This document shows positions 48,801-54,372 of a stretch of DNA of 64,000 bases, in pieces. The notes beneath the pieces are model-generated. The model worked only from the letters and a program-made list of their open reading frames with translations. It did no database searches and had not been told where the DNA came from. Numbering within the stretch: the stretch's first letter is position 1; each line of letters starts with the position of its first letter. The translations under genes and the position numbers were made by a program. Origin of the DNA: an uncultured Clostridia bacterium (GTDB taxonomy: Bacteria > Bacillota > Clostridia > TANB77 > CAG-508); NCBI GenBank assembly GCA_934154445.1, contig CAKPGC010000001.1, positions 93,414 through 157,413 on the forward strand. The letters run 5' to 3'.

Positions 48801-50040
48801 GGAAATAAATTCCATATCTACATTATAATACAAAAACATACTAAATTCAATATGTTTACTGAAAATTTAAGCTACACTAAAAAAACTTTATGTAATGTAT
48901 TTTCTATGTGAATTTTTTACATTATTTTGATTAACCATAGCATACTCCATAGTAGTATCTATTTTTATATGTCCTAATAATTTTTGAACTTGTTCTATTG
49001 GCATACCTTTATCAATAGCCATTGTTGCCATTGTTCTTCTAAATTTATGTGGATGAACTTTATTTATATTCGCTTCTTTCCCTAAATTTCTAATTAAAAT
49101 TTTAATCCCTGATATTCCTAATCTGTTATAAGGTTTTATAAGTGATACAAATAATGCTTCATTATCATCAGTTCTTGTTTCAAGATATTTCTTTATATAC
49201 ATTTTACTCTTTGCACTAAAATAAACTTCTCTTTCACTATTACCTTTTCCTAAAACAATACAACTTCTTTCTTGAAAATCCATATCTGATATATTTAATC
49301 TTGTAATTTCTCCAACTCTCATACCAGTTGAAATTAATAGTTCTAATATTGCTAAATCCCTTACATTTGAACAAGTATCTCTTAACTTTTCCAAATTTTC
49401 ATCTGTTAATGTTTCTTTTACTCTTCTAGTAGTCTTTACTTTATGAATTCTTCTTACTGGACTTTTTACAATATAGTCCTCATTTTCCAACCAAGCAAAG
49501 AAACTTGATAAAGTTCTTCTTATATTATCTATCGTTACCATACCTGCATTTGAATTATTTTTATAATCTGCTAAATAGTTTCTTAATGTTTCAGTATTAA
49601 TTTCATTTATTGGCAGGTTTACAGCATCAAACATTTTATTTATAGTATCTCTGTAATAATTTAAAGTTCTTTTTGAACACCCTTCGATTTCTTTAGATGA
49701 TATAAACCTATTTAGAATGTCTTCATTATTCCTCTGTATTTCTTCTTTTTGACTTTGTTCTAATTTCTCAATTTTATAATATAAACATATTTCTGTAAGT
49801 GTTTCTTTTAATTTTATTCTTTGGTTATTGTCTAAAAAATCTTCTGTTGCATTAATTACTTTTTCCACAAATAATTCTCTCATGACAATTACCTCCTTAC
49901 ATTTTTTTGATAGTTTGCAGTATATAGAACTCTATCTATATTATACAATATTTAATTGACATAATAAAAGATGAGCATATTTTATATACCCATCCAAATA
50001 TTTATATTTTTTTCAAATTTCAAAATTCAATCTCAGCGAC
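48801..50040. repeat. integrase module, copy 1 (about 1.24 kb: downstream hairpin, integrase gene, about 150 bp upstream region); repeated at 53321..54372
   Basis: Near-identical flanks (GGAAATAAATTCCATATCTACATTATAAT... and ...CAATCTCAGCGACAAATTAC) bound both integrase genes. Confidence 0.7.
48888..49883 (-). CDS. tyrosine-type site-specific recombinase/integrase (XerC/D-phage integrase family), intact copy
   Basis: 331 aa; box I ...STGMRVGE..., box II HPHKFRRT...LLGH...T..Y. Confidence 0.85.
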   Translation of the reverse strand: MRELFVEKVINATEDFLDNNQRIKLKETLTEICLYYKIEKLEQSQKEEIQRNNEDILNRFISSKEIEGCSKRTLNYYRDTINKMFDAVNLPINEINTETLRNYLADYKNNSNAGMVTIDNIRRTLSSFFAWLENEDYIVKSPVRRIHKVKTTRRVKETLTDENLEKLRDTCSNVRDLAILELLISTGMRVGEITRLNISDMDFQERSCIVLGKGNSEREVYFSAKSKMYIKKYLETRTDDNEALFVSLIKPYNRLGISGIKILIRNLGKEANINKVHPHKFRRTMATMAIDKGMPIEQVQKLLGHIKIDTTMEYAMVNQNNVKNSHRKYIT

Positions 50041-50327
50041 AAATTACTATTCATTTATTATAAGTTTATTTTTTTGACTCTTTATCTTTAAATAGATATA
50101 ATAAATATAGAAAATAACAAATCCACAAAAGTGGTTTTGCCGAATCAAGTTTGAAAAAACTCACACCTAACTCGCCAAAGTTACAGATGTAAGTTTTTTT
50201 TATTTATGTAGTTGCTTATCACTCCAGTTTTGTATAAGAACTGCTGTCAACGCAACGTTTAATGTTAAAGAAAACATTAAGGATGATATTAAAAATAGTA
50301 TCACTTTAATCATAAACAATTGTCACA

Positions 50328-51107
50328 CTAATCTCCAATTACTTCTATTGATTTTATTCTTAATTCATCCAAAGGTATATTTGAATTTTCATATTGTACT
50401 TTTACAATTTTTTCTCTCTGTAAATTTCCTATTATTTCAGTATTCTCTGTTATATATGCTTTTAACGCAAATGGAAAATTATAACCAGTATCAGAATTAG
50501 TATCATCCTCTAAACTATATTTTAAATAAACATATCCTGATTCTACATACTCATCGCCAATAGTTACAATTGAAGAATATGTCCTTTTTCCTGTTAATGC
50601 ATCTCTTTTCATTTGATTATAGTCGTTTGATTTTAAAACAATAATCGAATTATCTTTAGTATCAAAAGTATTCTCTCCTATACCATAGCCTTTTTTACTT
50701 AAATCCCCACTACAAATCAATATGTCTCCTTCTTGTATATAGCTTGTATCATATTCCTTCAATGTAAAATAATCTAAACATTTTTGATTTTTATTATTAA
50801 TATTGGATCTAGTATATTCTTTCATCTCAAAACCAAATTCTCCAAAATGTTGTCCATTAAAAATATAAATATATCCATTATGATTTAGTTCCACTATCCC
50901 TTGAATAACTGTATCTTTAATTACTTCTGTAGTTTCATCTTTTTTAGACATATCATATATAATATTTCCTTCTTTATCATAAATAACAGAATACTTATTA
51001 GAATTTTCTGTTTTATCTGTTTTTTTATCTTTATTAAAAAATACTACACCACATAAAAATATTACTAATATAGTACAAATTACAAAAATAATAATTTTTT
51101 TCTTCAT
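50328..51107 (-). CDS. membrane-anchored hypothetical protein (island cargo)
   Basis: Track start is TTG; re-placed at ATG 51107 (GAAGG RBS); N-terminal TM. Confidence 0.45.
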   Translation of the reverse strand: MKKKIIIFVICTILVIFLCGVVFFNKDKKTDKTENSNKYSVIYDKEGNIIYDMSKKDETTEVIKDTVIQGIVELNHNGYIYIFNGQHFGEFGFEMKEYTRSNINNKNQKCLDYFTLKEYDTSYIQEGDILICSGDLSKKGYGIGENTFDTKDNSIIVLKSNDYNQMKRDALTGKRTYSSIVTIGDEYVESGYVYLKYSLEDDTNSDTGYNFPFALKAYITENTEIIGNLQREKIVKVQYENSNIPLDELRIKSIEVIGD

Positions 51108-51152
51108 ATACAAACCTTCTTTCGACAAATTACTAAATTGTAATTTGTTGCT

Positions 51153-51461
51153 CTACTTATTTTCGATTAGATTGGTATAATATATAATTTCTTTACCGAA
51201 TTTTTTTGCATAATCTATTTCTAAATTTGTACTTTCTCCAATATAATTATTTATATTTACTACCAATATAGCATCTGATAATTCTATTCTTTTAAAATGT
51301 GCCTCTTTCAATTTTATTAATTGCTCTTCTGTTGCCTTCATATTTTCTAATACTGGATATACCGGTGTAAGAATACAATAGCCTTCTAATGCCATTTTTT
51401 CTGCAACTGTCATCATCTCTTTTTGAAATTTTAGACTTCCACACATTGTTATTATTTTCAT
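51153..51461 (-). CDS. DUF4406 / nucleoside 2-deoxyribosyltransferase-like small protein
   Basis: 102 aa, MKIITMCGSLKF...; fold-family guess from N-terminal motif. Confidence 0.35.
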   Translation of the reverse strand: MKIITMCGSLKFQKEMMTVAEKMALEGYCILTPVYPVLENMKATEEQLIKLKEAHFKRIELSDAILVVNINNYIGESTNLEIDYAKKFGKEIIYYTNLIENK

Positions 51462-52859: not shown

Positions 52860-52877
52860 CTTGCATACTCCTTTCCG

Positions 52878-53276
52878 CTATTCGCTGACCTCATAATTCC
52901 AGATATTCAAATGCCCTTTGGCAGGAATCGGCTTTTCAAATATCTCAACATCTTCCAAAATCCAAGCATATCTTCCCAAACTATATTCTCCGCATAAGAA
53001 TTCCTGCTTGTCCTTCTGTATCATGTCTAAGAATTCCTGATCCATATATACGCAATCAACCAATCTGCATTTGCATATAATGTTACCATATCCCATAGGT
53101 ACATTTGGAATCAGTTTAAGTAATTCACTTGTGTGCGCATCACTCCTTTTAATTTTTTTGTTACTTGCATGGATGTAAAGTTCACCTCTGTAAGATGTTT
53201 TCCAACTTCTTGTTTCGATGACCTTCTTTCCCTCTTTAATAAGAGTTGCCCATGGTTCAATAATACTTAAAACTTT
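52878..53276 (-). CDS. ASCH-domain (PUA-like) protein
   Basis: LSIIEPWATLIKEGKKVIETRSWKTSYRGELYIHAS matches the ASCH core. Start placed at the internal ATG so it does not extend into the repeated integrase-module flank. Confidence 0.55.
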   Translation of the reverse strand, partial: KVLSIIEPWATLIKEGKKVIETRSWKTSYRGELYIHASNKKIKRSDAHTSELLKLIPNVPMGYGNIICKCRLVDCVYMDQEFLDMIQKDKQEFLCGEYSLGRYAWILEDVEIFEKPIPAKGHLNIWNYEVSE

Positions 53277-53320
53277 CATAGCGTATGACACCTTTCTGAT
53301 TGATATGTAATTTTTATTTG

Positions 53321-54372
53321 GAAATAAATTCCACATTTATATTATACAGCATTATACCTAAAAAAAGCAATATTTTACATAACATTTTTAGAGTTTATGT
53401 AACTTATTTTTTATGAGAATTTTTAACATTACTTTGATTCACCATTGCATATTCCATTGTTGTATCTATTTTAATATGACCTAATAATTTTTGCACTTGT
53501 TCTATTGGCATACCTTTATCAATAACCATAGTCGCCATTGTCCTTCTAAATTTATGTGGATGTACTTTATTTATATTGGCTTCTTTTCCTAAATTTCTAA
53601 TTAAAATTTCAATTCCTGATATTCCCAACCTGTTGTAAGGTTTTATAAGAGATACGAATAATACTTCGTTGTTATCAATTCTTGTTTCTAAATATTCCTT
53701 TATATACATTTTGCTTTTTGCACTAAAATAAACTTCTATTTTGCTATTACCTTTACCCAAAACAATACAACTTCTTTCTTGAAAATTCATATCTGATATA
53801 TTTAATCTTGTAATCTCTCCTACTAAAATTCTCCTTATATTATCTATTGTTACCCTACCAGCTTTTGAATTGCCTTTATAATCAGCTAAATAGTTTCTTA
53901 ATGTTTCAGTAGTAATTTCATCTATTGAAACATTTATTGTATCTAACATTTTAGTTATATTATCTTTATAGTAATTTAAAGTTCTATTTGAGCAACCTTC
54001 AATTTCTTTAGATGATATGAATTTATTCAATATATCTGTATTATTCTTTTGTGTTTCTTGCTTTTTGGTTTGTTCTATCATTTCAATTTGATAATTTAAG
54101 CATATTTTTGTAAGTATTTCTTTTAATTTTATTCTTTGGTTATTGTCTAAAAAAACTTCTGTTGCATTAATTACTTTTTCTACAAATAATTCTCTCATGA
54201 CAATTACCTCCTTACATTTTTATTTGATAATTTGCAATATATAGAACTCTATCTATATTATACAATATTTAATTGACATAATAAAAGATGAGCATAGTAT
54301 ATATACCCATCTAAATGTTTATATTTTTGTTCAAATTTTAAAATCAATCTCAGCGACAAATTACAATTTGTG
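53321..54372. repeat. integrase module, copy 2 (degenerate, 195-bp internal in-frame deletion)
   Basis: Colinear with 48801..50040. Confidence 0.7.
53404..54198 (-). pseudogene. tyrosine recombinase paralog with in-frame 65-aa internal deletion removing the box I region; likely inactive
   Basis: 264 aa. The segment SSFFAWL...ISTGMR of the 331-aa copy is replaced by the junction IRRIL|VGEITRL. Confidence 0.7.

Follow-up and report, generated by a model that had tools for sequence, protein, structure and literature searches.

In a stretch of 64,000 nucleotides (nt) from contig CAKPGC010000001.1 of an uncultured Clostridia bacterium (referred to as the window), the region 45309-54369 is very probably a tandem array of modules, namely a two-cassette array belonging to a family of recombinase-delimited modules of AT-rich uncultured gut Clostridia. 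The canonical cassette of this family consists of a site termed L, a leader of ~150 nt, the gene of a Xer-like recombinase with 331 amino acids (aa), variable cargo and an inverted site termed R. Across related loci, the modules share this anatomy, end in sharp junctions and show presence/absence polymorphisms. The best explanation, to which a probability of about 60% is assigned, is a site-specific cassette array in which like sites (L×L and R×R) would be exchanged by the recombinase encoded in the cassettes.

Read on the minus strand, the element E2 comprises L, the integrase gene int2-delta, genes for ASCH, GNAT, TatD and DUF4406 proteins, and R. The element E3 consists of 6 nt, a partial L, a membrane-protein gene and a 275-nt spacer and carries no integrase. 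E1 is composed of L, the integrase gene int1, a palindromic leader, the genes CMK-Mom, Ham1-like and HhH-GPD, and R. Beyond the R site of E1 lie a 52-nt junction and a solo L-like site.

Duplication of the integrase module

A blastn comparison of the window against itself bore out the duplicated integrase module that an earlier interpretation of the letters alone (the sequence-only reading) had proposed. The two copies have a size of 1165 bp (copy 1) and 975 bp (copy 2) and are 88-89% identical. Positions 48887-49317 match 53394-53824 (89.3% identity, E 2.5e-154) and positions 49509-50051 match 53824-54368 (87.8% identity, E 0), and the 191-192 nt at 49318-49508 are missing from copy 2. The conserved 150-nt 5′ region ending in CAATCTCAGCGACAAATTAC was found in both copies.

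The gene int1 (48888-49883, minus strand) encodes an intact Xer-like tyrosine recombinase of 331 aa with an N-terminal SAM-like domain and the Pfam domain Phage_integrase (PF00589, 3.9e-37). Its best PDB matches are the archaeal XerA/XerC-like protein 4a8e (2.9e-30) and then 5hxy, and in the alignment with 4a8e the catalytic set R189, K213, H279, R282, H305 and Y314 is complete. The protein scores 249 bits against the NCBIfam model NF040815 (XerA-type 'site-specific tyrosine recombinase/integron integrase', cutoff 220). It is neither XerC nor XerD (equivalog scores of 163 against a cutoff of 335 and of 153 against 330) and lacks the IntI signature (TIGR02249, 84.5 bits against 265; NF011946, 42 against 435). 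Furthermore, its family is unlike a chromosome-dimer resolvase, being multicopy per metagenome-assembled genome (MAG) and linked to variable cargo.

The second gene, int2-delta (53404-54198, minus strand), is a pseudogene-like copy of 264 aa that reaches 154 bits with NF040815 and thus stays under the cutoff. Its product fails the catalytic-residue test for tyrosine recombinases because R189 and the preceding 63 residues are gone. In the alignment, residues 126-189 of int1 are missing in frame, including Arg-I of TGMRVGE, and a nonsense change places the stop three codons early (AGA AAA TAA compared with AGA AAA TAT GTT ACA TAA in locus L005). The decay of the second integrase was therefore recognised correctly from the sequence, as were the loss of the box I Arg and the junction IRRIL|VGEITRL, and only the length of the deletion had to be corrected from 65 to 64 aa. 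The same deletion is present in L001, L002, L094 and L237.

Many contigs break inside the integrase, as might be taken for a sign of an assembly artefact, but the two copies are 11-12% diverged and carry different cargo, and the tandem layout recurs in contigs of other samples that were assembled independently (L001, L002 and L237). For these reasons the assembly duplication considered earlier was ruled out, and the probability of an artefact or of a trivial recent tandem duplication is close to nil.

The genes listed earlier between the copies (membrane protein, DUF4406-like, tatD, GNAT and ASCH) were all found again. They had been regarded as one unit bracketed by two integrases, which did not hold: being located downstream of int2 on the minus strand, this cargo is that of copy 2, and copy 1 carries cargo of its own (45484-48720). 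Since the latter is located outside the previously given interval of 48801-54372, that interval was too narrow and the element array spans 45309-54369. No structural, packaging, lysis or replication genes are present in 45.3-54.4 kb, in agreement with the earlier view that the region is not a prophage. From its description as a decaying integrative element or tandem island, the tandem integrase-headed elements were retained; the modules, which are bounded by inversely oriented sites, are probably not ordinary islands with long direct att repeats.

Candidate recombination sites

The 19-nt motif AATCTCAGCGACAAATTAC, which ends the conserved 5′ region, has three matches in the window compared with 0.03 expected, and the third match is inverted (at 45390, one mismatch). 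With a position weight matrix (PWM), the conserved site was defined as 24 nt, AAATW|GTAAKTTGTCGCTGAGRTT. Only five PWM matches are found in the 64-kb window, at 54364 (-), 51140 (+), 50047 (-), 45390 (+) and 45327 (-), all of them within 45309-54369; a shuffled sequence gives 0-1.

L sites, with the outer flank ..AAATA | GTAAKTTGTCGCTGAGRTT, and inverted R sites of the form AAYCTCAGCGACAAMTTAC | AA... have the same sequence in opposite orientation and are one base apart. At this position (-1), directly before GTAA, 56 of the 59 unique L sites carry A and all 39 unique R sites carry T. Each site resembles a complete site of a simple recombinase, with a weak outer arm (RAYAA), a central stretch (ATWGTAA) and a strongly conserved inner arm (KTTGTCGCTGAGRTT), the conserved arm including GTAAKTTRTCGC. 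Judged by sequence, L and R would share a recombinase-binding arm and differ inside the 6-8-nt stretch where the junctions map, and the 24-nt L and R sites containing CAATCTCAGCGACAAATTAC are considered recombination-site candidates.

In the window, the sites are arranged in the order L, R, partial L, L, R, L. The exact motif is contained in the L-type site of E2 (54346-54369, minus strand; aaatt|GTAATTTGTCGCTGAGATT; PWM score 38.6) and in that of E1 (50029-50052, minus strand; gaata|GTAATTTGTCGCTGAGATT; PWM score 33.3), at which the homology with 60+ loci begins. The R-type site of E2 (51135-51158, plus strand; aaatt|GTAATTTGTTGCTCTACTT; PWM score 16) is degenerate and overlaps the DUF4406 stop codon; cassettes of this type in L014, L071, L010, L083 and L062 have homologous R sites. 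The E2 R site is separated by 6 nt (AATTTA) from a partial L-type half-site (51122-51133, minus strand; GTAATTTGTCGA), which directly precedes the membrane-protein gene. The R-type site of E1 (45385-45408, plus strand; atctt|GTAATTTGTTGCTGAGATT; PWM score 30.1) carries the motif with one mismatch. At the end of the array, the solo L-like site (45309-45332, minus strand; agata|GTAATTTATCGAGGAGGTT; PWM score 23.3) faces the end of the convergent MYG1 gene.

Recombinase clade and site co-occur. Relatives of the recombinase with 53-61% identity lack the motif, which was also absent in the hsdS-type, Fusobacterium and Methanosphaera relatives that were checked, and the 24-nt motif has zero matches in 2.9 million viral contigs. 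Small records labelled 'Bacteriophage sp.' with 55-64% identical integrases are not circular and lack the motif as well. An additional recombination site at the 3′ end of int was dropped as a candidate, since its likeness to the R core is limited to ATTACA and the last codons vary. In a metagenome contig with 30% GC and no integrase (L176, 10003-10054), an unrelated perfect palindrome, GTTAACTCAGCGACAAATTCCAATTTGTCGCTGAGTTAAC, shares the arm TCAGCGACAA with the cassette site, either by chance or by distant relation.

A cassette family in gut Clostridia

For comparison, 80 loci encoding close relatives of int1 (74-97% aa identity) were used, which originate from MAGs of uncultured gut Clostridia/Clostridium (human, mouse, rabbit and deer), except for one bin labelled Bacteroidaceae. 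About 75 loci share DNA homology with the int1 module, in almost every case from 4 nt outside the motif up to the stop codon of int. In 63 of the 80 loci, int is preceded by an L site on its own strand, and in 48 of the 80 an inverted R site follows 0.3-8 kb downstream, past the cargo; most loci without L or R are cut by contig ends. These 48 loci show the layout >L ... <R, with R-junction-L arrangements between them. Single MAGs contain several copies of the integrase, and over 20 of the 80 matches lie directly at contig ends. The family is very abundant, with more than 8000 close integrase homologues among the matches listed and 193 matches in species-representative genomes.

Among the 48 delimited cassettes, the commonest cargo is a single RhuM-family protein with 21 members (PADLOC candidate defence family PDC-S05). 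Others carry ToxN/AbiQ with a repeat array, UDG- and HhH-GPD-type glycosylases, NUDIX, MazG and Ham1-like pyrophosphatases, HD 5′-deoxynucleotidase, nucleoside 2-deoxyribosyltransferases, ASCH, GNAT and TatD proteins, methyltransferases or radical SAM enzymes. By its predicted functions, this cargo is of the kind usually found in defence islands and in the surveillance of nucleotide pools or DNA bases. The cargo order of E2, int-ASCH-GNAT-TatD(-DUF4406)-R, recurs in at least 11 loci and that of E1, int-CMK-Mom-Ham1-HhH-GPD, in L021, in each case with full-length integrases.

A nucleotide pyrophosphatase (NUDIX, MazG, Ham1-like or HD), a glycosylase (HhH-GPD or UDG) and a deoxyribosyltransferase-like protein recur together, for example in the pyrophosphatase-glycosylase cassettes of L009/L051/L068, L023, L024/L035 and L041, which hints at a shared modified-nucleotide theme. 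Integrase cassettes with ToxN/AbiQ as the only cargo are found in L037, L065, L066 and L070 (e.g., L065, 11014-11811). The tandem repeats in front of ToxN/AbiQ translate as a spurious open reading frame and presumably represent a ToxI-like antitoxin RNA.

Module junctions and relocation

Cassettes of the family are found in different surroundings. A 3515-bp unit consisting of L, int, a radical SAM/SPASM gene, a TehB-like methyltransferase gene and a degenerate R occurs with 99.9% identity in four or more contexts, among them two elements with relaxase and type IV secretion genes, and its integrase allele occurs in 285 data blocks. Another cassette (cassette X) is 98-99.6% identical in L030, L032, L075 and L076, and its right flanks are unrelated. 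Conversely, different cassettes share the same right flank (L014/L075, L019/L069 and L034/L074) or the same left flank (L046/L071 and L058/L081). The switch from shared to unshared sequence falls at -3..+4 of the site.

The presence or absence of modules without an integrase was seen in a pair of loci. Where L231 reads ..CCATACAAATTAC AA TTTCTCG.., L232 has two integrase-less modules inserted exactly at this position. Each of them starts with a junction segment (terminator hairpin and TGnTATAAT) and ends in ..AAATTAC AA, and the modules are bounded by the 11-nt direct repeat ACAAATTAC|AA. As the repeat has a length of only 11 nt, this points to site-specific recombination between direct R sites rather than to a RecA-dependent process. 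No tRNA gene is located near the array in the window. The short direct repeats of the R core (..AAATTAC|AA) bound the L232 inserts, and a degenerate copy of the R core lies 25-66 nt upstream of many L sites; the conspicuous long repeats are inverted. In L032 (4280-4375) and L230 (3250-3340), a radical SAM gene ends in an L-type site with an R-type core ~30 nt further on, which resembles an 'empty' L-R pair.

Promoters, terminators and leaders

The leader features were determined by an alignment of 32 leaders, a terminator scan and folding. The E1 integrase leader (49884-50028, minus strand) contains a terminator-like hairpin (49969-49995), a TGTATAAT promoter and a ribosome binding site (RBS). 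In the E2 integrase leader (54199-54345, minus strand), GATTTTAAAATTTGAA repeats, a hairpin (54286-54312), the extended -10 TGTATAAT, a 5-2-5 palindrome and an RBS were found. The terminator-like hairpin lies ~60 nt inside L, ahead of the integrase's own extended -10 promoter, and uses G-U pairs that are effective on the sense strand only. Variant leaders (e.g., L008, 137-250) have a different stem followed by U7, the terminator being kept. Transcripts that start outside L would end before int.

A further structured RNA in the leader was considered and rejected, as only the terminator hairpin is consistent (z -0.7 to -2.4) and no Rfam match exceeds the gathering threshold. Just 3′ of the integrase -10, all leaders contain the invariant 5-2-5 palindrome ATAGA-GT-TCTAT (49900-49925, minus strand, in E1), which may be an operator for autoregulation.

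Outside L, 22 of 58 unique L flanks contain a perfect TATAAT whose end lies 7-17 nt (mode 14) ahead of GTAA; it is found in 2 of 38 R flanks and at 2.7% of random positions. The TG extension occurs in 19 of the 58 L flanks, in none of the 38 R flanks and at 0.8% of random positions. Often this promoter-like element is part of a 62-68-nt junction that holds the terminator hairpin and is preceded by an R-type core. In the window, the corresponding junction segment (45333-45384) has a 13-bp terminator hairpin (45354-45382) and the -10-like TGTGATAAGAT; equivalent junctions of 62-68 nt are found in L027, L037 and L030. A promoter-like element of the form TTGAAA-18-TGATATAAT ends ~14 nt before L in a third to half of the docking flanks (L030, L046, L058, L228 and others; 50057-50062, minus strand, in the window).

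A promoter just outside L and a terminator just outside R would give a full transcript carrying both motifs, and the inverted 19-nt motifs could then pair as its 5′ and 3′ ends for processing or stability, unrelated to DNA recombination. Such a role at the RNA level is very improbable: a terminator-like hairpin lies ~60 nt inside L, internal promoters and terminators split the cassette into several transcripts, and the polymorphisms of the DNA junctions would be left unexplained.

The cargo genes have promoters of their own directly past the int stop codon. In E1, the cargo leader contains a palindrome (48787-48827) with a perfect 18-bp stem, a 5-nt loop (z = -9.1) and TATAAT on both strands. 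This hairpin had been noticed before, although with a 19-bp stem at 48783-48829, and had been counted as a 3′ part of the repeat and as a possible attachment site. Neither assignment could be kept. The homology to other loci ends at the int stop codon, only L008 and L014 (2 of ~80 loci) reach into the palindrome, and the counterpart in copy 2 (53308-53346, within the ASCH leader 53280-53403) barely folds (z = -0.25). The palindrome thus lies outside the integrase module conserved across loci, is absent from most related modules and was rejected as an attachment site.

The spacer outside the L site of E1 (50053-50327) has a TATAAT at 50057-50062 (minus strand), 9 nt from the site. It also contains the best sigma-70-like promoter of the region, TTGACT-17-TATAAT (50074-50102, plus strand), which is followed by ~90 nt that end in an imperfect hairpin and T8. 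The segment 50074-50200 (plus strand) may encode a small RNA, at 50110-50200; it has a weak Rfam match to the S. pyogenes sRNA 779816 (E = 0.14, below the gathering threshold). Positions 50048-50192 are 91% conserved beside the L site of L023.

Proposed exchange mechanism and alternatives

The junctions place the crossover in the central stretch that holds the base distinguishing L from R, and pairing of L with L and of R with R is therefore proposed. According to this model, the cassette-encoded recombinase would act on like sites, and the one-base difference would make L and R incompatible with each other. In arrays, like sites are direct repeats, so that a cassette could leave together with the adjoining junction segment as a circle. 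The excised circle might enter any resident site of the same type, or a cassette might be replaced by two crossovers. A lone cassette with one L and one inverted R would be stable and unable to excise. In the window, E1 is intact, E3 is an integrase-less module, and E2, having lost its recombinase and with a decayed R site, would rely on int1 or other copies in trans.

Several observations weigh against this exchange model. Neither a circular junction nor an empty docking site nor a product of recombination was seen directly. A scan for circular or attP-like junctions (two conserved arms 4-36 nt apart) gave four unrelated high-GC matches in viral contigs, and in metagenomes it was uninformative, with unrelated palindromes among the at least 120 matches listed. 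In the search for an empty site via the flanks, every contig that carries the identical MYG1, DUF2207 or membrane protein either has this array or is broken within int, and DUF2207 homologues with 57-59% identity have a different synteny. Furthermore, the L site of E2 has T instead of A at position -1 and misfits the simple L/R rule. Neither L×L nor R×R exchange accounts for the L032 junction ..CAAATTAC AT GTTGTCGC.., where 8 nt lie between two inner arms and an R core runs directly into the inner arm of the cassette that follows, and an external promoter that is followed by a terminator fits poorly. Two further points concern the integrase gene itself, and another the closest annotated relatives of the recombinase.

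The first two are a mosaic integrase in L005, which is partly int1-like and partly int2-like, and a cargo swap between the window and L094. The latter locus has the same strain background (99.8% identity) and the same int2 deletion, and NUDIX and HhH-GPD genes replace ASCH-GNAT-TatD; the break is located in the last ~20 nt of int and not at the site. Together, these cases indicate that homologous recombination between integrase paralogues also shuffles modules, and it could explain part of the shuffling. Integrase and cargo are unlinked: at least four cargo types are associated with integrases that share 94-97% identity with int1, and the integrase tracks the host lineage rather than the cargo. 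All this would suit ordinary decaying islands that change by homologous recombination, with int as portable homology and the 19-nt motif as a promoter, operator or terminator element. As a full account it is quite unlikely, since modules without an integrase appear or disappear at an 11-nt repeat that offers no long homology, the switches lie no more than ~7 nt from the motif at either end, even at the R end, which has no integrase homology, and the motif is inverted at the ends with a fixed difference of 1 nt.

The remaining point leads to invertible, phase-variable cassettes, in which the recombinase would flip the L-R segment relative to a promoter outside L. The closest relatives in annotated plasmids are 'xerA' genes located between inverted hsdS genes of Type I restriction-modification (R-M) loci (53-61% identity; pRV500, pJM2A and L. 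salivarius CP020859), and two relative-carrying plasmids, CP020859 and pMPJM1, are cited as epigenetic invertons (PMC7672463). The inverted sites, the position of the recombinase inside the segment and the enrichment of TATAAT outside L are also in line with inversion. On the other hand, an L flank never matches an R flank in the 36 locus pairs that share a flank, and all contigs of the strain of the window are in one orientation, so that fixed inversions are not seen. In the all-against-all comparison no orientation polymorphism was found either, save an unrelated rearranged segment in L005/L043. The A or T at position -1 is nearly fixed relative to the orientation of the integrase, and with the cargo genes' own promoters and a terminator after L, a flip would not obviously switch expression. 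As the movement of cassettes between flanks would also be left unexplained, inversion is considered an unlikely alternative to site-specific cassette exchange.

Cargo genes of the array

The first cargo gene of E2 (52878-53279, minus strand) encodes an ASCH-domain protein (Pfam ASCH, 4.5e-9), which is called as 133 aa in L001. It is followed by a GNAT acetyltransferase (52341-52859, minus strand; Acetyltransf_1, 2.7e-14) and a TatD-family nuclease/hydrolase (51477-52256, minus strand; TatD_DNase, 1.8e-69; PADLOC QatD, 6.7e-20). The last E2 gene (51153-51461, minus strand) encodes a DUF4406 or nucleoside 2-deoxyribosyltransferase-like protein with marginal Pfam matches (DUF4406, 21.9 bits against a cutoff of 22; Nuc_deoxyrib_tr, 20.0 against 28.8). 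The membrane protein of E3 (50328-51107, minus strand; 259 aa) has a hydrophobic N-terminal segment and belongs to no Pfam family.

In E1, the first cargo gene, CMK-Mom (46861-48720, minus strand; 619 aa from ATG), encodes a cytidylate-kinase-like P-loop domain (Cytidylate_kin, 1.3e-17) fused to a Mom-like domain (borderline, 27.3 bits against a cutoff of 27.1). The second (46329-46898, minus strand) encodes a Ham1-like, i.e., non-canonical NTP pyrophosphatase-like, protein with a weak match, and the third (45484-46332, minus strand) an endonuclease III-like HhH-GPD glycosylase with a C-terminal Cys cluster, which matches the PADLOC model 'Type II nicking endonuclease' (1.4e-18). The trio, which is also found in L021, may represent a DNA-modification or base-surveillance system. 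No hsdR, hsdM or hsdS gene is present at 43.9-58.9 kb of the window.

Elsewhere in the window, two FtsZ paralogues (Tubulin and FtsZ_C domains) are encoded 4 kb apart at 16440-17408 and 21405-22526 (both on the minus strand), with a DNA identity of 71% over ~660 nt.

Comparison with known systems

In architecture, the dif (pdif) modules of Acinetobacter plasmids are closest, in which gene modules lie between inverted asymmetric Xer-type sites (PMC13141974, PMC6160057). Both systems have two alternating classes of segments, in the present family integrase cassettes, which have the conserved arms on their inner side, and short junction segments, which have them on the outer side. In both, adjacent pairs are excisable via direct sites (the C+D pair logic, PMC13141974; predicted here), single modules are replaced at a fixed position, and the cargo is of toxin-antitoxin or defence type. 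They differ in the recombinase, which is encoded in most cassettes here and provided by the host XerC/XerD there, and in the site, the 28-bp pdif (XerC arm, 6-nt spacer, XerD arm) contrasting with a 24-nt site presumably used by one protein. The dif modules reside on Rep_3 plasmids of Acinetobacter, whereas the cassettes described here reside on the chromosome or integrated conjugative elements of gut Clostridia and their junction segments contain both a terminator and a promoter. For dif modules there is experimental proof of recombination; here it is predicted from comparative junctions.

With integrons, including sedentary chromosomal ones with defence cassettes (bioRxiv 10.1101/2024.07.02.601686; PMC9024848), the family shares a tyrosine recombinase, short sites, exchangeable cassettes, a promoter beside the insertion point and cargo enriched in anti-phage genes. 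Unlike integrons, it has no IntI signature, no attC hairpins and no single attI platform, and most cassettes have their own recombinase and promoters and a pair of duplex-type inverted sites.

The recombinases of phase-variable Type I R-M systems (PsrA/CreX; PMC7672463, PMC7096588) are closest in sequence, with 53-61% identity over the full length and the same NF040815 assignment, and RhuM, the most frequent cargo here, is likewise encoded alongside such loci. In contrast to these, there are no hsd genes here, the 24-nt sites bound whole cassettes and not repeats in hsdS, and the comparative data show relocation and exchange rather than inversion; the relatives at hsdS loci lack the motif.

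Engineered recombinase-mediated cassette exchange (RMCE) with heterospecific or inverted lox/FRT sites also flanks a cassette with two inverted sites that share arms and differ in the spacer; such a cassette is stable alone and can be exchanged with another one bearing the same pair. RMCE is a laboratory design, whereas here the incompatibility of L and R is suggested by a single conserved base. Elements of the Tn916/CTnDOT type likewise have imperfect inverted repeats at their ends and a tyrosine recombinase inside. The cassettes differ from them by a simple Xer-like enzyme without a detected arm-binding domain, the lack of conjugation genes and a size of 2-8 kb.

In the literature, for which coverage was incomplete, dif modules, integrons, hsdS invertons and defence systems associated with serine recombinases were found, but no description of this cassette family, which is apparently undescribed in uncultured gut Clostridia.

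Significance for gut Clostridia

Tentatively, cassettes with their own recombinase and inverted sites differing by one base might act as natural RMCE units and form an undescribed class in Firmicutes. Such units would insert behind promoter/terminator 'slots' of the chromosome, be carried from species to species by conjugative elements and build up arrays of genes with anti-phage and nucleotide-sanitising functions.

Integrons hardly occur in Firmicutes (PMC9024848), and the cassette family would fill their functional niche in this phylum. If it does form such a class of units, it would be a clostridial counterpart of integrons and dif modules. Should the single-base difference between L and R control the choice of partner, the cassettes would represent a compact natural two-site exchange system with a possible use in genome engineering. 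Candidate defence systems, such as the CMK-Mom, Ham1-like and HhH-GPD trio of E1, can also be drawn from the cargo catalogue. The relevance of the family lies in the fact that it is largely unknown how defence islands of gut anaerobes assemble and are exchanged. For uncultured Clostridia, it would offer a testable mechanism by which defence genes (RhuM, ToxN/AbiQ) and nucleotide-repair-type genes (glycosylases, NTP pyrophosphatases and deoxyribosyltransferases) might be exchanged as modules and also be transferred by conjugative elements.

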